Assembly (NCBI GenBank): GCA_043799675.1
Contig: JAZDNN010000002.1
Span: 1 to 14,505, forward strand
Direction of reading: 5' to 3'
DNA from: Candidatus Aenigmatarchaeota archaeon
Lineage (GTDB): Archaea > Aenigmatarchaeota > Aenigmatarchaeia > Aenigmatarchaeales > JACQIB01
DNA: 14,505 nucleotides
Below are positions 72 to 14,505 of the stretch, in pieces; position 1 is the first letter of the stretch, and every line of letters begins with the position of its first letter. A model generated the notes under the pieces. The model was given only the letters and a program-made list of their open reading frames with translations, was not told where the DNA came from and did no database searches. The position numbers and the translations under genes are program-made.

Positions 72-234
72 GCCGTCGTAGCCTAGCTAGGTAAGGCGCT
101 AGATCAGCGTTGAGGCGTATCTCGAAAACTAGTGCTCGCAAGGGCTCGCAGGTTCAAATGAGCACCGCAGTGCCAAAATATGTTTTGGCAACCTCCGGGT
201 TGCAGTGCTCTGAAGTATCCTGCCGACGGCGCCA
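72..234 (+). tRNA. trnS: tRNA-Ser(CGA) with two non-canonical introns (30/31: 103-119; 59/60: 159-217) and encoded CCA
   Basis: Acceptor GCCGTCG(72-78)/CGACGGC(224-230), G73, CCA 232-234; D-stem GCCT/AGGC; spliced anticodon arm CTAGT-CTCGAAA-ACTAG; long variable arm GCTC-GCAA-GGGC; T-arm GCAGG-TTCAAAT-CCTGC. BHB at 30/31: helix CGCT(97-100)/GGCG(114-117), bulges AGA and TAT, inner stem TCA/TGA. BHB at 59/60: helix TTCA/TGAA, inner stem GAGCAC/GTGCTC. Confidence 0.93.
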
Positions 235-243
235 GATCATTTA

Positions 244-504
244 TCAAGTGCTGGACTGTGAATATCCTTTTGCATCGCCTATTACAGGCAGCGGATGCAG
301 GGTATAGCCCGCCTTACGGAGCATGTCGGAAAGCAACTTCATCTCCTCATCACCTTGCTTCGGGTCGGTATCGTTCACTTCCAGCTTGACCAGGCATTCG
401 GGGTCGCCCATGCAGTACACTATTTCGACTATCCGTCCCCGTCCGATTCTGGCCAATCCGGCCGGGTTGGCATCGTGTCCGCTCTCAAGCCTCGCGTATC
501 GCAT
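244..504 (-). CDS. Small hypothetical protein (86 aa, MRYARLESG...)
   Basis: ORF track gives 244..519; start moved to ATG 504 because a minus-strand TTTAAG (534-529) begins 30 nt upstream. Confidence 0.6.
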   Translation of the reverse strand: MRYARLESGHDANPAGLARIGRGRIVEIVYCMGDPECLVKLEVNDTDPKQGDEEMKLLSDMLRKAGYTLHPLPVIGDAKGYSQSST

Positions 505-540
505 GCAATACCAAAGCACGGATAGGTTCTTAAACCGATG

Positions 541-1839
541 CTAGATTGAAATCAGATTCAGTTTCCTCAGTGACCAGTAAGCCGCCAACCCGGCCCCCAT
601 CACTGCGGCCCCCGCGAAGAATATCTCCTTGCTGAAGAAGAAAAGCATGAACATGTTGGCGGCAAGGCCCAATCCGGCCAGCACAGGGAACCTTCCTATA
701 TTAACTGGCATTTGGAACTGCCCAGGATGCCAGTGATAACTGGGCGTCCGGTAACGGAGCACTATGACCGAAAGGTTCACGACCGCGAACATGAGGAACG
801 CGCCGAAATCCGAAAGCTTAGCCACAGTCTCGATGCTTCCTATGGTCGTGAACGAGGCGGTGACAACCAATACCAGTATGATTGCCACCCACGGCGTCTG
901 ATGCTTGGGATGGACCTTTGACAGTATCCGCGGCATGCCGCCTTCCGCCGCCATGGACCGTATCATCCTTGAAGCGGCTATCATGGAAGCCAGGACGGTC
1001 GTAAGGGTGGCGCCGAACGCTATGAATGACAGGACCGGCCCGAGGCCCGGCATCGCGGCCTCTGCCACTACGGCAAGCGGTGCATCGCTGGCGGCAAGCA
1101 CGTCCATGGGTACCACGCTTACCGCCGTGATTGAAACCACCATGTACAGAATTGTTGATATTCCGAGCGCTATCAGAATACCGTGGGGTATGACGTTCTT
1201 GGCGTTCTTGGTCTCATCCGACATGTTCGCCACGTTCTCGAACCCCAGGTATGCGAAGAAGACCAGCAACGCCCCCGTCATCACGCCCCCGAAGCCGCCC
1301 TTCGGAACGGTATAATCCACGCTGCCAATGTAACTCCATCCCAGCGCCACGATTATGAGCAATCCGATTATCTCCACGGCCGTCAGCAGCATCTCGAAGT
1401 CGACGGATGCCCTGATGCCCTTGAAGTTCAGCATGGAAAGCAGGATGATGAGGACGATTGCCGCCGTCAGGATGGGAACGCCCGTCATCGCCGAGAAATA
1501 GCCGCCGAAGCCCAGCGAAACGGTGGCGGCGGTCGCTATCATGTTGTATATCGCCAGCCAGCCTATCAGGAACGCGAACCATTTCCGCCGGAAGGCGTGA
1601 TCGGTGTACGTGTACACCGCGCAGGACTTGGGAAAATGGCTGGAAAGCTCCGCAAAACTGAGCGCGGTAAGTCCGGCGACTATCGCCGCCACGCCATACG
1701 ACATCCAGACCGCCCCGCCGGTTATTCCAACGGCTTTTCCCAGCAAAGAATAGATTCCGGCGCCGACTATGATTCCGAGCCCGTAGACCGTTACGTCAAA
1801 CCTTCCGAGGACGCGTTTTAACCCCACCTTTCTTTCCAT
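541..1839 (-). CDS. APC-superfamily amino acid permease (432 aa)
   Basis: TM1 GIIVGAGIY, FAELSS..PK motif, TM6 FFAYLGFE, about 12 hydrophobic segments. Confidence 0.93.
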   Translation of the reverse strand: MERKVGLKRVLGRFDVTVYGLGIIVGAGIYSLLGKAVGITGGAVWMSYGVAAIVAGLTALSFAELSSHFPKSCAVYTYTDHAFRRKWFAFLIGWLAIYNMIATAATVSLGFGGYFSAMTGVPILTAAIVLIILLSMLNFKGIRASVDFEMLLTAVEIIGLLIIVALGWSYIGSVDYTVPKGGFGGVMTGALLVFFAYLGFENVANMSDETKNAKNVIPHGILIALGISTILYMVVSITAVSVVPMDVLAASDAPLAVVAEAAMPGLGPVLSFIAFGATLTTVLASMIAASRMIRSMAAEGGMPRILSKVHPKHQTPWVAIILVLVVTASFTTIGSIETVAKLSDFGAFLMFAVVNLSVIVLRYRTPSYHWHPGQFQMPVNIGRFPVLAGLGLAANMFMLFFFSKEIFFAGAAVMGAGLAAYWSLRKLNLISI

Positions 1840-4800
1840 GCGGAAGGTTGTCGAAAGGGACTAATAAAACATCCTTTTTCACCGCTTTGCGGGGCTTCTT
1901 TACGGAAGACGTTTCCGGCCTGGCTGCAAGAGGTAACGACGATGCAGGCAAAGGTCTTTGCCGGGCCATCCTGCCGCCGTATCCCTGCGGGGACCTTTCA
2001 TGCTTCCAGTATTGCCACGTGAATATCGTCATCACTATCAATATCACCACTATCCACAGGAAATCCACCACAGCGCAGGTTCCTTCCTCCTGCCATGCGG
2101 TGCACTGGTAATCCGTCTGACTGTCGCAACGATAGTTGGTCCTGAACCATATGCCTTCCGTGCAAGCGCCCCACGGACCCGGCGGCTGACAGGTCTTGCA
2201 TTTGTCGGTCAGTTCCGTGTTGAGGTCGTATCTGGCCGTGGCGCTGTTGCTGCGGGCGGTGAAATTGATGCCGTAGACGGCGAACGGCGCGAACTGCGGG
2301 ATGCTGATTGTGGCGCTTATCGGCACGCTCTCCTTCGGCTGCAGTTTCTCGATGAACGAAGGGCTTATCGTGACCCATTCGGAAGGTATGCCCTCGGCCG
2401 TGACGGTTATGTCTTCCAGCACGCGGTTTCCGGTATTGGTGAGCGTGAGGTCCAGCGGTTCCGTAGAACCCCTGCCGACCGTCACCTGGTTGATGCCGTC
2501 CACCACCGTGATATCGCCGTCGCCGGAAAGATTCATGTTCCATACGGGTATCTGTCCGGAAAGGGACTCGTTGAATATGGTCACGGTGCCCGGACCGGAG
2601 GGCCCTGACGGAGGAGATGAGCCTGTTCCGGTGACGGTGAATGTCCGGTTTATCGTGTCGTTCCTGACAAAGAAATCCGCGCTCGCGTTCAGGGTGGCTG
2701 TCCACGTGCCGGGGTCGTTTGTCAATGCCAGCGTACCGTTCCAGAAGTACGATGTGCTCGATGAGTTGGTGAACACGATGAACGTCCAGTCGTCACCCTC
2801 GGTTCCGGGCGTGCCCGTGCACCCGCCCCAGCCGCTCAACTGGAAGTAATCATAAATTCCCGCCCACCAGTCGGGAGAATCGGACCCTATCAGGTTGTAA
2901 ACGGCGTTCGCATAACCGGGACAGGTGCCGGAACCGCAGGTAAACCTGAAATAATAAGGCGGGGTTTGTGAGCCCGAAAACGAGGGCACCGAACCCGGAA
3001 CCAAGTTCTCATCGAACGCCAGCAAGTCGCTGCCTCCGATGTCCCAGCAGGAGTTGCCTGTTCCGCTGGTCAGGTTGGTCGTTGTAACCGTGGTGTTCGC
3101 CCGACGATACAGGCCGGAATGCAATCTGCTTCCGTCGGGCTTGGCCAAGCTGATGTTATAATTCAGGTTGTAGTTGCTCTGCATCACAGAAAGACTCTCG
3201 CCCCACGGGAAGGTTATGTCGGCCTTTGCGGTCAGGTTGTCTGTGGAATTGTAGCTCGTTCCAGGATAGCTGCCCGCAAGCAGGAAACTGGTATTGAGGC
3301 TTCCGTAAACACGCGCAGTCGGCTCACCGAGCGTGTTATAACTGTCGTTGACTGCCGTCCAGAAATAGCTTCCGGCGTAGTCGTGGTCGTCGGCCGGGCT
3401 CCACCAGTACGTCGCCACCCCGTTCACGCTGGTGTTGCTGCCCAGGGACCAGTAGGAGGATTCATAAGCGGAAGGCGCGGTCTGGTTTATCTCGAATGTG
3501 ACTTCCACCCCGCTCGCCCCGTCCGACAAGGTCGCTACGAGGGGGATTGCATCCGGATAGACGTTGCTCACGGAGTCCCTGTCGATTATGGAATTGTTGT
3601 ATCCCATCGAAAGCGTCAGGTTCTGTTTGGGCCCGAACTGGTAGAGATAGGCGTCGCTGTCAACGACGTACAGCATCCCGTTGTACGGGACCATGCTCAT
3701 CGGCCTTTTTGTGATGTGGTGGCTCCAGAGCAGGCTGCCGTCTGATGCATTCAGTGCAAGCACGTAGCTCCCCCACGGTGGCTGGTTCAGGTCCGCACCC
3801 ACATACAGGACCCCCTTGTTGTCCTGGACAGGTCCGGTCATGTAGGCCACGTTGAGCCCCAGGTATGACGACCATATTTCGGACCCGGTGACGGCATCGT
3901 GAGCGTAGCAGTATGAACCGTAGCAGAAATACACGGCATTCCCGTATACTTGGAACACCGCGTTGAGACCGGATGCCACCCCGTGCGCGACCGACCACGA
4001 CTCGGTCATGTTCGATATGTTGTACGCGTGAATCATGCCGTTGTCCTGGTCCCCGAAGAACACGTTCCCGTAGCCTACGGACGGGACCGTGGGAATCCGG
4101 CCGGTGAAGCTCTGGTTCCACAATCTTGTTCCGGTAAGCACGTCCAGCGCATAGATTTCGCCTGCGAATGCCCCGCCGGTCGACTCGTACGCGGTCAGGT
4201 AGAAGGTGTCGTTGTATATCGCCGGCGGGTCCCACACGAGCCCCCCGCCGGGAACGTTCCAACCGGTCACGTTTTCGGGCGTGAATTCCCATACCTTGTC
4301 GCCCGTAAGGTAATTCCTGCCCGTTATGGTGGTATGGTTATCGTTGATCAGGATGCCGTTGTGATAACCGGTGGCGAACATGTCGTAATAGAAATCATCC
4401 GTCACGTTCCACAGCTGGGTGCCGTCCGTGACGTTGTACGCGAATATTCCCGGAGCCCCGTAACTGGCCACGAACAGGACCCCTCTTGCAACCGTGGCAT
4501 CCATGGCGTTGATGTAACTGATATCGGCTATTTCCCATATCTCGTCGCCGGTCGTGGCATTGACCGCAACAACATAGTCCTGCGTGGGCACTATGATCAT
4601 GCCGTCCGTCGCCAGCATGGTATGATAATTTGCCACGCTGTCGCTTTCCACCCTGATCCTCCAGAGGACTTTGCTGCCCAACGGTCCCGATATGTTTGTA
4701 TTCGCGTATCCCCACCTCTCGTTGTTCTGTTGGGCGGTCGGCCAGTCAACGGCAATGCTGCTGTTCAGCCTGCTGTAACCCTTGTTCCCGCCGGTGACGT

Positions 4801-5188
4801 TGTCCGGGTCCACAATCACATGCACGTCATGGAGCTCGCTGGTTGCCGTCCAGGGCATGCTGGCGCTGGCCGTGGAACCGGCAGCCAGGGAAGGCAGCGT
4901 TCCGTTGGCCACGTTGCTGTCGTCGATGTAAAGCGCAATCACGAATGTGGCTGCCGGATCCTCGGTACCCACGTTCTTGACGGTGATGTTGAACTCGACA
5001 TTATCCCCTGTCTGCGGTCCTGCCGGGCTGTAGCTTATGGAAATCGGTCTTAAGTCCCCCTGGAAATCGGCGGGCGCAAAGGCGGTCACGACCGGCCCCT
5101 GTCTCATCATGGCACCGAACGCAAAGAATGCCGCCAGGACTGCGATGGAAATCACGGCAAGAATTCCCGTTTTCTCTGCTCCTTTCAT
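1796..5188 (-). CDS. Large membrane-anchored surface glycoprotein (~1130 aa): N-terminal TM/signal, CARDB Ig-like domain, PQQ/BamB-like beta-propeller repeats, further Ig-like domains, Cys-rich module, C-terminal TM and basic tail
   Basis: CARDB-like DLRPISISYSP...VEFNITVKNVG; repeats AVNATTGDEIW, AYNVTDGTQLW, ALDVLTGTRLW, AHDAVTGSEIW, ALNASDGSLLW; many NxS/T sequons; TM FLWIVVILIVMTIFTW. Start moved from TTG 5203 to ATG 5188 using the TATA at 5217-5211. Confidence 0.85.
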   Translation of the reverse strand: MKGAEKTGILAVISIAVLAAFFAFGAMMRQGPVVTAFAPADFQGDLRPISISYSPAGPQTGDNVEFNITVKNVGTEDPAATFVIALYIDDSNVANGTLPSLAAGSTASASMPWTATSELHDVHVIVDPDNVTGGNKGYSRLNSSIAVDWPTAQQNNERWGYANTNISGPLGSKVLWRIRVESDSVANYHTMLATDGMIIVPTQDYVVAVNATTGDEIWEIADISYINAMDATVARGVLFVASYGAPGIFAYNVTDGTQLWNVTDDFYYDMFATGYHNGILINDNHTTITGRNYLTGDKVWEFTPENVTGWNVPGGGLVWDPPAIYNDTFYLTAYESTGGAFAGEIYALDVLTGTRLWNQSFTGRIPTVPSVGYGNVFFGDQDNGMIHAYNISNMTESWSVAHGVASGLNAVFQVYGNAVYFCYGSYCYAHDAVTGSEIWSSYLGLNVAYMTGPVQDNKGVLYVGADLNQPPWGSYVLALNASDGSLLWSHHITKRPMSMVPYNGMLYVVDSDAYLYQFGPKQNLTLSMGYNNSIIDRDSVSNVYPDAIPLVATLSDGASGVEVTFEINQTAPSAYESSYWSLGSNTSVNGVATYWWSPADDHDYAGSYFWTAVNDSYNTLGEPTARVYGSLNTSFLLAGSYPGTSYNSTDNLTAKADITFPWGESLSVMQSNYNLNYNISLAKPDGSRLHSGLYRRANTTVTTTNLTSGTGNSCWDIGGSDLLAFDENLVPGSVPSFSGSQTPPYYFRFTCGSGTCPGYANAVYNLIGSDSPDWWAGIYDYFQLSGWGGCTGTPGTEGDDWTFIVFTNSSSTSYFWNGTLALTNDPGTWTATLNASADFFVRNDTINRTFTVTGTGSSPPSGPSGPGTVTIFNESLSGQIPVWNMNLSGDGDITVVDGINQVTVGRGSTEPLDLTLTNTGNRVLEDITVTAEGIPSEWVTISPSFIEKLQPKESVPISATISIPQFAPFAVYGINFTARSNSATARYDLNTELTDKCKTCQPPGPWGACTEGIWFRTNYRCDSQTDYQCTAWQEEGTCAVVDFLWIVVILIVMTIFTWQYWKHERSPQGYGGRMARQRPLPASSLPLAARPETSSVKKPRKAVKKDVLLVPFDNLPHGKKGGVKTRPRKV
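1862..1879 (-). promoter_or_regulatory. BRE/TATA for the APC permease, inside the 3' end of the upstream surface-protein CDS
   Basis: Minus strand AAAAAGGATG-TTTTATTA; first T (1869) is 30 nt from ATG 1839. Confidence 0.6.
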
Positions 5189-5237
5189 GGAACCAAATGG
5201 CAAGGCACGCTTAAAAATATCGGCACCGGCACCAACC

Positions 5238-5244
5238 TTAATAA
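5238..5244 (+). promoter_or_regulatory. TATA box (TTAATAA) of tRNA-Gly, back-to-back with the divergent TATA (5211-5217) of the surface-protein gene
   Basis: First T 28 nt upstream of tRNA G1 (5266). Confidence 0.65.
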
Positions 5245-5265
5245 GTTCTGTTGGCTACTCTGGAT

Positions 5266-5407
5266 GCGCCGGTAGTCTAGTGGTAGGATACGAGCTTGCC
5301 AAATCACGTGCAATTAGCTCGCGACTCGGGTTCAAAATAGCGCGCAGCGCCAAAAGCGCTTTTGCCGCCGATGCGGCGGTGCTATGATTGTCCCGGCCGG
5401 CGCACCA
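5266..5407 (+). tRNA. trnG: tRNA-Gly(GCC) with a canonical 37/38 intron (5302-5315), a non-canonical 59/60 intron (5337-5390) and encoded CCA
   Basis: Acceptor GCGCCGG/CCGGCGC, A73, CCA 5405-5407; anticodon arm CGAGC-TTGCCAA-GCTCG; BHB at 37/38 with helix TTGC/GCAA and bulges CAA, TTA; 59/60 helix TTCA/TGAT (one T-T mismatch), bulges AAA and TGT, inner stem TAGCGC/GTGCTA. Confidence 0.94.
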
Positions 5408-6314: not shown

Positions 6315-6436
6315 GCGGGAGTCGCCAAGCCAGGTCTAAGGCGCAAGGCTCAGACAGTGAGTGCGATGCTTAGGAAGACCTTAAGAAACCTTGTGGGTTA
6401 GTCCCTTCGCAGGTTCGAATCCTGCCTCCCGCACCA
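6315..6436 (+). tRNA. trnL: tRNA-Leu(TAG) with two introns (30/31: 6348-6367; 37/38: 6375-6387) flanking a 7-nt anticodon micro-exon; encoded CCA
   Basis: Acceptor GCGGGAG/CTCCCGC, A73, CCA; long variable arm; T-arm GCAGG-TTCGAAT-CCTGC. BHB1: helix CGCA(6342-45)/TGCG(6362-65), bulges AGG and ATG, inner stem CTCA/TGAG. BHB2: helix CTTA(6369-72)/TAAG(6382-85), bulges GGA and AAA. Spliced arm CAAGG-CTTAGGA-CCTTG has the G37 typical of Leu. Confidence 0.9.
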
Positions 6437-9731: not shown

Positions 9732-10181
9732 ATGAAAGTTCTTCCTCGCTTATCTGAAATGTCGCCTTTGCAGGCGGTGTATGGCAACAGCACAAGGGAA
9801 CTTATAGTAGGACATCTCCTCGGCACCAAGGACGGCACGGATTTTTTCAGCAGAATTAAGGAGAAACTGGCTCTTCAGAACGGCTCCGCATCTTACCACC
9901 TGCGAGCGCTGGAAAAGATGGGCGTCCTGACATCCTATCCCAAGGACAACAGGAAATGGTACCGCCTGAAAAAATCCGGCGGCCCCGAGGATATAGAAGG
10001 CGACATTCTCTCGGTTGTCAACAAGCACGAAGACGGTCTCTGCGTCGGGGAGGTGGCACGGTTCGTGTTGGCGAGATATGGTACGGTCGCGAACCGCCTG
10101 CAGAAGCTTTCCGAAAACGGGGATATAGTTTACGACCGGCACGACCGGCGATATTATCCGGCTACGCGACACGATTCATAG
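9732..10181 (+). CDS. Transcriptional regulator with tandem winged-HTH domains (149 aa)
   Basis: FSRIKEKLALQNGSASYHLRALEKMGVL...RKWY and VGEVARFVLARYGTVANRLQKLSENGDIVY...RYY; TTAAAT at 9704-9709 favours ATG 9732 over 9723. Confidence 0.85.
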   Translation: MKVLPRLSEMSPLQAVYGNSTRELIVGHLLGTKDGTDFFSRIKEKLALQNGSASYHLRALEKMGVLTSYPKDNRKWYRLKKSGGPEDIEGDILSVVNKHEDGLCVGEVARFVLARYGTVANRLQKLSENGDIVYDRHDRRYYPATRHDS

Positions 10182-10278: not shown

Positions 10279-10400
10279 GGCCGGGATAGTGAAGCGGTAT
10301 CATGCGGGCCTGTGGGCACTTTTTGTGCGATGCACAAAAACCTGCACTAAAAAGCGCCAGAAAGCCTAAGTCCCGAGTTCGAATCTCGGTCCCGGCCCCA
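10279..10400 (+). tRNA. trnH: tRNA-His(GTG) with encoded G-1, a 47-nt 37/38 intron (10316-10362) and encoded CCA
   Basis: G-1 at 10279; acceptor GCCGGGA/TCCCGGC, C73, CCA 10398-10400; anticodon arm CGGGC-CTGTGGA-GCCTA (C27-A43 mismatch); relaxed BHB helix CTGT/CCAG; T-arm CCGAG-TTCGAAT-CTCGG. Confidence 0.92.
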
Positions 10401-12342: not shown

Positions 12343-12815
12343 CTTCCCAGGGCCTCGATTATGTCCGCCCGCGAAATGATTCCAACCAACTTGCCGTCTT
12401 TTGTGACCACCGGCAGTCTTTTCACCTTGTAATGCACCATCCTTGCCGCGGCAGCCTCAAGCCTCGCCTCCGGCTGGATGGTTATGACCCTTTTCTGCAT
12501 GAAATGCCGGACCCTGATCTTCCCGCTTCCGATGACGTCCTTTTTTATCACGTCAAACTCCTTTCCGCGCACGCCGTGTTTCAGGACCGCAAAAACCACC
12601 GCAAAGGCCTCGTCCGTGTCAAGGCGTATCTGGGGGTCATAGGCGTTGATCGCCTTTATCACGTCGCCTTCGGTGACCAGTCCGACCACCTTTCCCTTCT
12701 CCACCACGGGTGCGCCGGTTATCCTGTTCCTGGTGAGCCTTTCCAGGACCGTTTCCAGCGTATCTTCAGGCTTGAACGTGATGACCTTCTTTGTCATCGC
12801 TTCGCCCACTAGCAT
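12339..12815 (-). CDS. CBS-domain pair protein (158 aa)
   Basis: VGEAMTKKVITFKPED...ITGAPVVEKGKVVGLVTEGDV and VRHFMQKRVITIQPE...VKRLPVVTKDGKLVGIISRADII; minus-strand TTTTATT at 12843-12837. Confidence 0.93.
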   Translation of the reverse strand: MLVGEAMTKKVITFKPEDTLETVLERLTRNRITGAPVVEKGKVVGLVTEGDVIKAINAYDPQIRLDTDEAFAVVFAVLKHGVRGKEFDVIKKDVIGSGKIRVRHFMQKRVITIQPEARLEAAAARMVHYKVKRLPVVTKDGKLVGIISRADIIEALGS

Positions 12816-12845: not shown

Positions 12846-14505
12846 TTACTTTCCGGTCGCGGTTATCAATATCCATTCGCGCAGCGGCTTCCGTATGTGC
12901 TCGATTCTTACGCCTTTCCAGCCAGCCTTCGTGAAATTCGACCTTATCGCATTGTCCTTGTGGAGGAACGGATGGCTCACTATGCCCGGGGAACGCACGG
13001 CCAAGAACACCGCCCTGCCCCCTTTCCTCAGCGTTTTCCGCAACGCTGAAAGTTCCCGCCCCGGATTTACGAAGTAGTTTATGGCAATGGTGCAGATTAT
13101 CCTGTCAAAGCATCCCTTCGGGAACGGTGCCGGTCTCGTATTCTTGACCCACATGACGTTGGGCGTTTCAATCTTTCTTATGTCGGTCAACGCCCTCGAT
13201 AACTGCTCCCGGCTTATGTCCGCGGCCACCACCTTCCCGCGCGGCAGCATCCCTGAAAGTATGGCTGTGGTGATGCCGGTCCCGCAGCCGTAATCCAGCA
13301 CGCACATCCCATCCTTGAGTTTCGCCGCAGCAAGGACCTTCTGCTGCATGCCTTTCCTGTAAAGCACGGCAGGCCAGTACCATGCCCAGAACCAGCTTAT
13401 CCTGTCCCACCATTTTTCTATGAATTTCCGGTCGGTAATCAGTTTCACCAGGACGTATGCAGGCAGGCCCGCGATTATCAGCAGCCAGCCGGTAGCCAAA
13501 ATCTGGGGCGGGAGGGAAACCAGCATGAACACCAATGTAACGACTCCGAGAACAGGGAACAGTTTTGGAACGGGGAACAACGCCGGCCTTGTTCCCTTCA
13601 GCTTGAGCAATGAAATGAACACAAGGATGTACATCACAAGGCCCACCGACAACAAAAGGATTATGGCCAGCTCAAAGCTTCCCGTGGCAGCTATCACCGT
13701 GGCAATCCCCAACTGAAGCATCAGCGCCCTCGAAGGCGCCCCGTGACTGTTCAGCTTGTCCAGATATGCCGGGAACAGCTTCTGCCTGGCCATGACATGT
13801 GGCAGCCTTGCGACGGTCGTGGTCCAGCTGTTCATCGCGCTCAGCCCGACAAGGACTGCCACCAGGGAAAACAATCCGGCCAGGGAAACGCCGAACGTTG
13901 CCGCAGTGGCGGCAAGCGGGTTGGCCTGGGTTGCCGCGACCGTCAGGTCCGTGTTACCCAGGAAAACCGTTATGATTCCGACGTACAGCGCGGCCATAAC
14001 CAGCACCGTCAGGAGCAGAGCTTTGGGCAGCAGCTTCTTCGGATTTTTCACTTCCTCGGCTATGATGGTCGCGGTCTCCCACCCTATGAACAGTTCGAAA
14101 CCTATCACGGCAGCGAGTCCGAAATTAACGTTTTCAGGGAACTCGAACGAAAACCTCGACCAATCGACCGTCGGCAGTCCCGTGAACACATAGATTGTCA
14201 TCAGCAAAATTGCAAACGCTATGAGGACCGCTTCCACGCGGGCGCTCAGGCTTATGCCCCGCAGGTTGACAAGCGTAAATACTACCAGCAATACCACCGC
14301 CAGCAACACGTTATTGACCGCAGCCATTGGCAGCATGTCCCTGATGAATTGCGCGGTTATGACAGCAAGGGCGGCTATCGCGGTGGTCGAGTATATCCAC
14401 GTGGACCACCCGGTGACGAATGCCGCAAGGTCCCCGAAGGCCGCCCTGACGAAGACCACCGGCCCCCCGGACTTGGAAAACATGCTTGCCAGGCTCGCGA
14501 AGCAG
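12846..14505 (-). CDS. APC amino acid permease fused to a C-terminal class I SAM-dependent methyltransferase (5'-truncated by the window)
   Basis: Frame is open to the window edge (CFASLASMFSKSGG, an APC motif), FIGWETATIIAEEVKNPK; methyltransferase motif I VLDYGCGTG (13275-13301), VVAADIS, FDRIIC, LRKGGRAVF. Confidence 0.9.
   Translation of the reverse strand, partial: CFASLASMFSKSGGPVVFVRAAFGDLAAFVTGWSTWIYSTTAIAALAVITAQFIRDMLPMAAVNNVLLAVVLLVVFTLVNLRGISLSARVEAVLIAFAILLMTIYVFTGLPTVDWSRFSFEFPENVNFGLAAVIGFELFIGWETATIIAEEVKNPKKLLPKALLLTVLVMAALYVGIITVFLGNTDLTVAATQANPLAATAATFGVSLAGLFSLVAVLVGLSAMNSWTTTVARLPHVMARQKLFPAYLDKLNSHGAPSRALMLQLGIATVIAATGSFELAIILLLSVGLVMYILVFISLLKLKGTRPALFPVPKLFPVLGVVTLVFMLVSLPPQILATGWLLIIAGLPAYVLVKLITDRKFIEKWWDRISWFWAWYWPAVLYRKGMQQKVLAAAKLKDGMCVLDYGCGTGITTAILSGMLPRGKVVAADISREQLSRALTDIRKIETPNVMWVKNTRPAPFPKGCFDRIICTIAINYFVNPGRELSALRKTLRKGGRAVFLAVRSPGIVSHPFLHKDNAIRSNFTKAGWKGVRIEHIRKPLREWILITATGK

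Follow-up and report, generated by a model that had tools for sequence, protein, structure and literature searches.

Two tRNA genes in a 14,505-nucleotide stretch of DNA from a Candidatus Aenigmatarchaeota archaeon (contig JAZDNN010000002.1 of assembly GCA_043799675.1, our contig C38; hereafter the window) are each interrupted by an insert between T-loop positions 59 and 60. We consider it probable (about 0.7) that these inserts are tRNA introns spliced by the bulge-helix-bulge (BHB) endonuclease, that they belong to a young multi-copy family copied from gene to gene at position 59/60 in this DPANN lineage, and that this family, which we call family A, is one branch of a wider family of insertion elements of about 60 nt with three tandem hairpins. 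A first-pass annotation of the window had proposed that the two introns are homologous, that they spread between tRNA genes, and that their fold may mark either a function of the excised RNA or a mobile mini-element. The genome (G000; 749 kb in 45 contigs, 54% G+C, completeness 83%, contamination 0.08%) is that of a DPANN archaeon, and the closest relatives of its P-type ATPase were DPANN metagenome-assembled genomes (Nanoarchaeota, Woese-, Pace- and Aenigmatarchaeota) at 55-70% identity.

The intron sequences quoted in that annotation were found exactly at positions 159-217 and 5337-5390, and the blocks said to be shared, CGCAG(T/C)GCCAAAA-N4-TTTTG, a second GC hairpin and GTGCT-N-TGA, were all present in both. 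Each intron splits the T-loop between TTCAAA and the T that precedes the 3' T-stem, with the acceptor strand and an encoded CCA following. Global alignment of the two introns gave a score of 43, as compared to 13.3 +/- 5.7 for dinucleotide shuffles, and none of 2000 shuffles reached 43, which places their similarity beyond chance by the shuffled control that had been proposed. In a MAFFT alignment 34 of 59 columns were identical, and this identity extended past the parts constrained by the splice motif into the unconstrained interior. The latter observation, and the near-identical copies in 13 genes described below, argue against convergence, in which the likeness would be imposed by a splice motif and GC-rich hairpins with no family behind it. 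The 3' tail and closing stem are indeed constrained by the BHB, and unrelated 59/60 families in the same genome end in similar YGAR-type tails; however, those families (B, C and D) share the site and not the sequence, and we regard convergence as extremely improbable.

Family A was represented in the genome by 13 copies, all of them at 59/60, according to blastn-short, a covariance model (CM) built from five introns only (R1), and a regular-expression census. Eleven copies are 54-59 nt long, and the other two are 31-nt deletion forms that lack the second and third hairpins (Hb and Hc). In each of the 13 genes, taking out the intron restored a T-stem, a T-loop of 7 nt (TTCRAAT) and the second T-stem strand, after which ARAGORN recognised a tRNA in 11 of them, with at least eight isotypes (Leu twice, Gly-GCC, Gly-UCC, Ile, Gln, Asn, Pro, Ala twice and Lys; these calls are unsure for genes with further non-canonical introns). 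Both intron subtypes, long and short, were present in several isotypes. A pattern scan of metagenomes returned 16 loci, eight of which carry a family-A intron at 59/60; the other eight matches were an unrelated sequence recurring across those contigs and were set aside. One metagenomic copy (L164) shares its 3' exon and its long intron subtype with the window's first tRNA, but has GCGC/GCGC as first hairpin versus GCAC/GUGC in the window. Homology of the 59/60 introns, resting on the alignment against shuffles and on the 13-copy family, and their spread between tRNA genes at one T-loop site, seen in 13 genes of this genome and eight metagenomic copies, are thus both supported.

Position 59/60 is widely occupied in this genome, where a census that required an encoded CCA, with obvious false positives dropped by eye, counted about 23 tRNA genes with an insert at this site versus 18 with an intact T-arm. 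At least three further 59/60 families (B, C and D, with two or three copies each; Table 1) are unlike family A in sequence, and blastn-short found no match to them outside tRNA genes in the genome. The family-C copy on contig C44 contains a nested extra insert (96 nt vs 44). The host of the family-C copy on contig C16, a tRNA gene with anticodon CAT, holds three inserts, in the D region, in the anticodon loop (a long intron) and at 59/60; nested inside its anticodon-loop intron is a family-A element (C16:18408-18463).

We examined the borders of 21 family-A copies (13 genomic and eight metagenomic) and found that they form what is, on sequence, a nearly canonical hBHBh' motif with predicted cut sites at 59/60. 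The T-stem, as outer helix, pairs at 5/5 positions in all 21 copies. The central helix, formed by T-loop bases 54-57 with the four intron bases before the last two, pairs 4/4 in 17 copies (or 18, allowing a 4-nt bulge in the first window copy), the inner helix pairs at 5/6 or more positions in 18, and both bulges are mostly AAT. The central helix co-varies, with TCCG/TGGA, TCCA/TGGG, TTCG/CGAG and TTCG/CGAA occurring beside the common TTCR/TGAG. From these features we infer splicing at the family-A borders. The genome encodes two adjacent EndA paralogs (C10:51469-52295 region), each with tRNA_int_endo_N and tRNA_int_endo domains in Pfam; by its domain content the pair resembles a two-subunit enzyme, and endonucleases of that kind cut non-canonical introns, according to passages of PMC5829648.

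The fold shared across the wider family proved to be three tandem hairpins, and not the Y-shaped branched structure that the first-pass annotation had drawn. Hairpin Ha consists of GC-N2-4, a loop of 3-4 nt and the complement, Hb of CAAAA-N4-TTTTG, and Hc is a GC hairpin of 5-6 bp. In 12 copies that lie outside tRNA genes, 92.1% of alignment cells were paired under this fold as compared to 78.2 +/- 1.7 in shuffles, eight of 15 pairs had changed on both sides (26 cells), and none of 500 shuffles reached the observed values; slid controls paired at 20-47%. Twelve tRNA-borne copies retain the hairpins, with Hc as GCCGC/GCGGC, GCAACC/GGTTGC or GCTGC/GCAGC, in an alignment that was fitted to the model and so favours structure. 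A MAFFT alignment of nine introns, in which the two forms of the third hairpin were misaligned, led RNAalifold to a poor, mixed structure, and hand-set structures and a CM-based alignment were therefore used.

In precursor context, the 11 full-length copies did fold into the Y shape (a closing stem with two hairpins) in RNAfold, with energies of -30 to -35 kcal/mol. Because Ha and this closing stem share their 5' bases, the two are alternatives, and the variable base (G or A) at this place fits both pairings. In our reading the closing stem is the putative h' of the splice motif, its inner helix, and the 3' TGA contributes to the 4-bp central helix formed with T-loop bases 54-57; the earlier argument from a retained branched fold to a function of the excised RNA is not supported as it was put.

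A functional RNA was nevertheless weighed, in which the excised intron would be a stable, probably circular small RNA whose fold is kept by selection, with the copies outside tRNA genes as additional genes or sites of that RNA. In both contexts compensatory changes preserve all three hairpins; tRNA introns of archaea can circularise and be stable after excision (passages of PMC3326292), and a stable intron-borne C/D-like RNA is described in Nanoarchaeum equitans (passages of PMC3491384). However, Rfam held no known family matching either window intron, and alignments inspected by eye contained no recurring pair of C box (RUGAUGA) and D box (CUGA) across copies. The features of a box C/D guide RNA, as in tRNA-Trp of Euryarchaeota, were absent, as the 5' end reads UGAGCRC and a CUGA near the 3' end is confined to the first window copy. 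With no consistent splice motif, the copies outside tRNA genes would not release the same RNA, the two 31-nt forms without Hb and Hc persist at 59/60, and relatives of the same family do without the family-A intron in tRNA-Gly. We therefore consider a functional RNA unlikely and, on present evidence, unsupported.

The search for copies outside tRNA genes that had been proposed yielded about 21 in the genome, as three-hairpin elements of about 60 nt directly 5' of start codons. R1, built from introns, also matched non-tRNA sites, at E 1e-5 and 1e-3. A second CM, R2, was built from the 12 non-tRNA copies only, and the link that it makes to the introns is thus non-circular: it matched 36 places in the genome at E <= 1 (the next-best unrelated match had E 0.58), and among these it recovered 10 T-loop introns genome-wide at E 2.8e-10 to 2.5e-5, with an eleventh found when filters were off. 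An nhmmer profile from eight non-tRNA copies likewise matched the introns, at 4e-5 to 5e-3. The assembly contains no rRNA gene, and any copies in the organism's own rRNA fall outside this count.

After 18 of the 21 non-tRNA copies, a same-strand open reading frame (ORF) of at least 60 aa starts within -10 to +3 nt, and within one gene cluster on contig C43 that includes ribosomal-protein genes, six copies occupy intercistronic gaps of 60-70 nt. Seven downstream genes were confirmed by Pfam (S4e, L35Ae, L31e, prefoldin, Pelota/eRF1-like, topoisomerase VI B and a HerA-type ATPase), and six others were named L18-, L19e-, L22-, L32e-, S8- and L14e-like from reading their N-termini, the L14e candidate having no Pfam match at 1e-5. 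The topoisomerase VI B gene (C10:55714-57609), which lies behind a tandem pair of elements, appears by eye to have about 100 extra residues between its N-terminal region and the ATPase domain.

Sixteen of the non-tRNA copies start with ATG, and in 12 of these the frame so opened runs for 17-20 codons and its stop codon ends 0-4 nt before the downstream start. Shuffles predicted 0.55 such cases; as the copies are related by descent, the observed count of 12 is not to be read as a probability. The pattern holds in all three length phases, each with different stop codons. A conserved small peptide was considered and rejected, given that the residues vary (VNKVD, VHEMN, VDFVN), copies use different frames, and the stems stay complementary. 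In our view what counts is the fold (as RNA or DNA) and where the stop lies, and not the peptide, since complementarity is kept while the encoded residues change. These copies may act as a translationally coupled mini-cistron.

Comparison with related genomes gave the start-proximal copies the look of insertions. Ahead of the L18-like gene the gap measures 67 nt in this genome as compared to 1, 4 and 4 nt in the relatives G001, G003 and G004; the 63-nt insert there starts with ATG, and its removal restores a TGA-5 nt-ATG junction. The Pelota leader of G003, the nearest genome (64% protein identity), contains no element. This comparison covers two orthologous sites, the L18-like junction in three relatives and the Pelota leader in one. 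Direct repeats of 3 nt flank most copies (AAT..AAT in T-loops, ATG..ATG before genes), and an inverted repeat, GAGC..GCTC, was clear in the G003 copy only, with none clear in most copies. The idea of a mobile mini-element thus gained from the roughly 21 homologous non-tRNA copies and from the insert missing at both orthologous sites, and we hold it plausible; it gained nothing from viruses, where three pattern scans of viral contigs gave 0, 0 and 1 match, the single match lacking flanking hairpins and being read as chance. Three sets of sediment DNA contigs (shares 0.05-0.09) gave fragments only, among them tRNA sequence of other organisms without the insert after position 159 and one contig that joins a family-A intron tail to the 3' exon of another tRNA; none of these was used as evidence.

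The family is narrowly distributed. Among 42 genomes of the order, R2 at E <= 1e-4 matched only G000 (33 matches), G003 (one) and G004 (two), and at E <= 1 it gave 1-3 matches in two relatives, while R1 matched nothing in 40 relatives at E <= 0.01. The copies in relatives lie in or beside rRNA genes (L146, G004:C2:202920-202980; L140, G004:C5:31722-31781 and 32870-32933; L139, G003:C19:2894-2955). In the G004 16S gene a copy of 62 nt is inserted in a hairpin loop (at about position 246 of the Rfam model); the other copies are found within the 23S gene, at its 3' end, and some 275 nt upstream of a 16S gene. A strict BHB search found no clean motif in these copies, which might be spliced out or retained as expansion segments. 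We also compared tRNA-Gly(GCC) in five genomes of the same family, of which G003 and G001 have no 59/60 intron and G002, G004 and G005 have unrelated ones. This comparison shows 59/60 to be, as far as the gene sequences tell, a recurrent landing site, and the gain of family A appears recent relative to the divergence of these genomes.

In a maximum-likelihood tree of 45 copies, all 20 tRNA-borne copies fell into one branch (support 100/99), with the free-standing and relatives' copies outside it, a pattern in keeping with a single entry into tRNA genes and later copying from one to another. The single branch also speaks for a rival account, in which the introns would spread among tRNA genes only, by gene conversion or ectopic homing through the T-arm, possibly triggered by LAGLIDADG endonucleases and not by transposition, the non-tRNA elements then being a separate, older sister family. 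T-loop copies always sit at 59/60 (one nested copy is in an anticodon-loop intron), both intron subtypes recur in several isotypes, and about 12 LAGLIDADG_3 loci were found in the genome, several beside tRNA genes; that at C10:22276-22509, for example, adjoins the tRNA gene at C10:22539-22682. However, the flanks shared between family-A sites amount to only 8-12 bp or so (GGTTCRAA, and T plus the stem), and none of the family-A host genes directly adjoins an endonuclease gene, the closest of which are 1-2.7 kb off. We consider this route doubtful as a full account; it concerns the mode of spread only and is compatible with the explanation that we favour. The LAGLIDADG_3 loci also include C10:53588-53842, C6:12867-13088, C12:433-1002 and C16:95730-95957, among others; some lie in very long frames (908-1581 aa), which are probably inteins, and several are free-standing frames of about 220 aa beside tRNA genes.

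A route through RNA would have the excised intron reverse-spliced or ligated into RNA at a BHB-like site, reverse-transcribed and recombined into DNA. The genome encodes one reverse transcriptase (C16:60554-61198) as well as the splicing endonuclease, but the non-tRNA copies have no BHB, and the passages of an Asgard-archaea preprint report no support for such a route (10.64898/2026.10.13.758758). All tRNA genes found carry an encoded CCA, with or without a family-A intron, an observation of little weight against the RNA route because the census had required it. The reverse transcriptases of diversity-generating retroelements, to which this one may belong, are template-specific. We regard this route as very unlikely.

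The insertion-element explanation must itself be set against several results that weigh on the other side. The central helix pairs only 3/4 in three copies, that of tRNA-Gly among them, and enforcing the BHB on the T-arm plus intron gave folds that were 0 to 5.7 kcal/mol worse than the minimum-energy fold in the 13 copies. We infer that these borders are spliced, and likewise in what order the introns leave and what becomes of them once excised. A strict BHB finder detected no consistent motif in the 21 non-tRNA copies, which are therefore not called introns here, and one mechanism need not serve both contexts. A sequence-only profile built from introns matched the non-tRNA copies marginally (E 0.02-0.3), so that the link between them rests on the structure-aware models and the reverse profile, and the CM E-values are rough because calibration was shortened. 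With 59 usable columns and a midpoint root, the tree does not settle whether element gave rise to intron or the reverse. The 3-nt repeats could reflect the needs of splice bulges and start codons and not target-site duplications, and a Y1 (IS200/IS605) transposase was not found in this 83%-complete genome, a search that did not extend to other transposase families.

Taking both sides together, we favour the following model for how the two window introns arose and are removed. In the precursor, the T-stem would serve as outer helix and the closing stem of the intron (AGCRC/GTGCT) as inner helix. Between them, the 3' tail of the intron (YGAG/TGAA) would base-pair with TTCR, T-loop bases 54-57, into a central helix of 4 bp, and the cut sites would lie in two bulges of 3 nt, mostly AAT. 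The two-paralog splicing endonuclease would then cut and a ligase join the exons, a pathway predicted as a whole from sequence. The intron lineage would be one branch of the elements of about 60 nt with three tandem hairpins, other members of which would have inserted directly before start codons, often as a mini-ORF of 17-20 codons that ends at the start of the next gene. A small insertion element of this kind may persist where it is harmless, being spliced out of tRNAs or translated through between genes, and the likeness of the introns would reflect recent common descent together with splice-motif constraint. We propose only tentatively that one dispersed element is harmless in these two ways, with its 3' tail building a splice motif with TTCR in the T-loop and a mini-cistron keeping translational coupling at the start codon.

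Table 1. Locations of the window tRNA genes, their introns and predicted splice elements, and of the other inserts in the genome.
Feature	Location	Strand	Basis or remark
Class II tRNA gene with encoded CCA	window 72..234	+	First-pass annotation: Ser; ARAGORN after 59/60 intron removal: Leu-CAA
Second intron of first tRNA, 19 nt, anticodon loop, unrelated to 59/60 intron	window 107..125	+	ARAGORN i(35,19); BHB hand-read
First tRNA, 5' T-stem GCAGG 148-152 (putative outer helix h) and T-loop TTCA 153-156 (putative 5' strand of 4-bp helix H)	window 148..158	+
First tRNA, AA 157-158 (predicted first two bases of bulge 1)	within window 148..158	+
Family-A intron at 59/60, long type, 59 nt	window 159..217	+	R2 E 1.3e-6
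First intron, hairpins Ha 162-165/170-173, Hb 174-178/183-187, Hc 188-193/198-203	window 159..217	+
First intron, alternative closing stem P1 (putative h') 160-165/205-210; H' strand TGAA 211-214	window 159..217	+
First tRNA, 3' exon: T60, 3' T-stem CCTGC, acceptor 3' strand, then GCCA	window 218..234	+
tRNA-Gly(GCC) gene with encoded CCA	window 5266..5407	+	ARAGORN after intron removal
Second intron of tRNA-Gly, 14 nt, after anticodon loop, unrelated	window ~5303..5316	+	ARAGORN i(37,14); borders ambiguous by 1-2 nt
tRNA-Gly, 5' T-stem TCGGG 5326-5330, T-loop TTCA 5331-5334 (putative H strand), AA 5335-5336	window 5326..5336	+
Family-A intron at 59/60, short type, 54 nt, tRNA-Gly	window 5337..5390	+	R1 E 4.9e-21; R2 E 3.1e-8
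Gly intron, hairpins Ha 5340-5343/5347-5350, Hb 5351-5355/5360-5364, Hc 5364-5368/5373-5377	window 5337..5390	+
Gly intron, P1 (putative h') 5338-5343/5379-5384; H' strand TGAT 5385-5388	window 5337..5390	+	H' pairs 3/4
tRNA-Gly, 3' exon: T60, 3' T-stem CCCGG, acceptor 3' strand, then ACCA	window 5391..5407	+
tRNA genes with family-B intron	G000 C4:14998-15137, C6:28315-28453, C23:3002-3173		59/60
tRNA genes with family-C intron	G000 C10:22539-22682, C16:18316-18568, C44:1312-1540		59/60
tRNA genes with family-D intron	G000 C12:9633-9808, C45:5786-5952		59/60
Start-proximal elements	G000, for example C43:9646-9708, 12437-12497, 13930-13994, 14933-14993, 15867-15927, 21916-21977
Start-proximal elements	G000, further examples C10:57610-57730; C16:9535-9595, 10094-10153, 43020-43080

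With default settings ARAGORN found no tRNA in the window, and with introns allowed it found only two tRNAs with an intact T-arm; the only Rfam matches in the window were two other intron-bearing tRNAs, at 6315-6433 and 10280-10397, which in the Rfam alignment have 35 and 50 nt inserted in the anticodon loop. Each of the four window tRNA genes thus contains at least one intron and encodes CCA. The label Ser given earlier to the first of them is doubtful, since ARAGORN reads it as class II with anticodon CAA (Leu), whereas its discriminator G is, we presume, a better fit to Ser than to Leu. The flanks of its 19-nt anticodon-loop intron, read by hand, form a clean BHB in which AGAT/ATCT is the 4-bp helix and CAG and CGA are the bulges. 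Between the two tRNA genes lies an ORF of 1135 aa on the minus strand (1796-5203), probably for a surface protein, in which CARDB, PQQ-like beta-propeller and NPCBM-associated domains are present.

In searches of full-text literature we found no description of tRNA-intron families with start-codon-proximal relatives, the 2010 paper on transposed intron groups cited below and its supplements lying outside that search. Among the systems that are known, the non-tRNA elements resemble miniature inverted-repeat transposable elements (MITEs) and repetitive extragenic palindromic (REP)-like repeats, as these appear in passages of PMC3184786, in being short, structured, multi-copy and intergenic, with short direct repeats at their borders, and in that the three-hairpin element is missing from the two orthologous sites checked in relatives. 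Unlike those repeats as there described, the element stands at a fixed distance from start codons and carries a mini-ORF, and one of its branches would be a spliced intron. If a mini-ORF arrangement of this kind is real, it would give an insert an uncommon means of remaining neutral within an operon.

For the position and the enzyme, the nearest parallel is the ARMAN-2 (Candidatus Micrarchaeum) pre-tRNA-Cys, whose hBH intron at 59/60 is, in the passages of PMC5829648 (see also PMC3239211), a substrate of a broad-specificity EndA. That intron shares with family A the T-loop position, a DPANN host and, for family A presumably, the need for an endonuclease that accepts non-canonical sites; the intron of those passages is a single one with a relaxed motif, whereas family A has 13 copies, a nearly canonical hBHBh' motif on sequence, and two adjacent EndA paralogs. 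Caldiarchaeum has provided a model for the disruption of a tRNA gene by an integrating element (passages of PMC3293823), in which, as we suggest here, the gain of a tRNA intron is tied to a mobile DNA element. According to those passages the Caldiarchaeum element is 1.8 kb long and encodes a recombinase, whereas the element in our genome is about 60 nt and encodes no enzyme.

The closest precedent for the spread is in the Thermoproteales, where similar introns in different tRNAs have been ascribed to large-scale intron transposition of unknown mechanism, defined as transposed tRNA intron groups by Fujishima, Sugahara, Tomita and Kanai (2010, Mol Biol Evol 27:2233), as summarised in passages of the reviews PMC4090602 and PMC4033280; the same summaries read the copying as recent and as made possible by the BHB requirement. 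Like those groups, as the reviews describe them, family A consists of near-identical introns at the same position, including a non-canonical one, in different isotypes, here in 13 genes with at least eight isotypes by ARAGORN. Unlike them, family A occurs in a DPANN archaeon and has relatives outside tRNAs, before start codons and in or beside the rRNA genes of related genomes; the review passages mention no non-tRNA copies, a point on which the 2010 paper itself may bear. These reviews, in the same passages, treat the origin of non-canonical archaeal tRNA introns as open and ask for "snapshots" of insertion events. The non-tRNA relatives offer a possible source for T-loop tRNA introns, and if our two-context proposal is true, such dispersed elements would be the donors that have long been sought for the non-canonical tRNA introns of archaea, and perhaps also the donors of the small rRNA inserts in relatives. 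A young family in 13 tRNA genes, its free-standing relatives, the empty sites in sister genera and the unrelated 59/60 introns of different genera together make a model of donor and landing site testable. Transposition of tRNA introns is thus of an already known kind, described for the Thermoproteales, and what is new here is the non-circular link of an intron family to start-codon-proximal inserts in one genome, together with sites that are empty in relatives, a tree that gathers the tRNA copies into a single branch, and the pattern of mini-ORFs.

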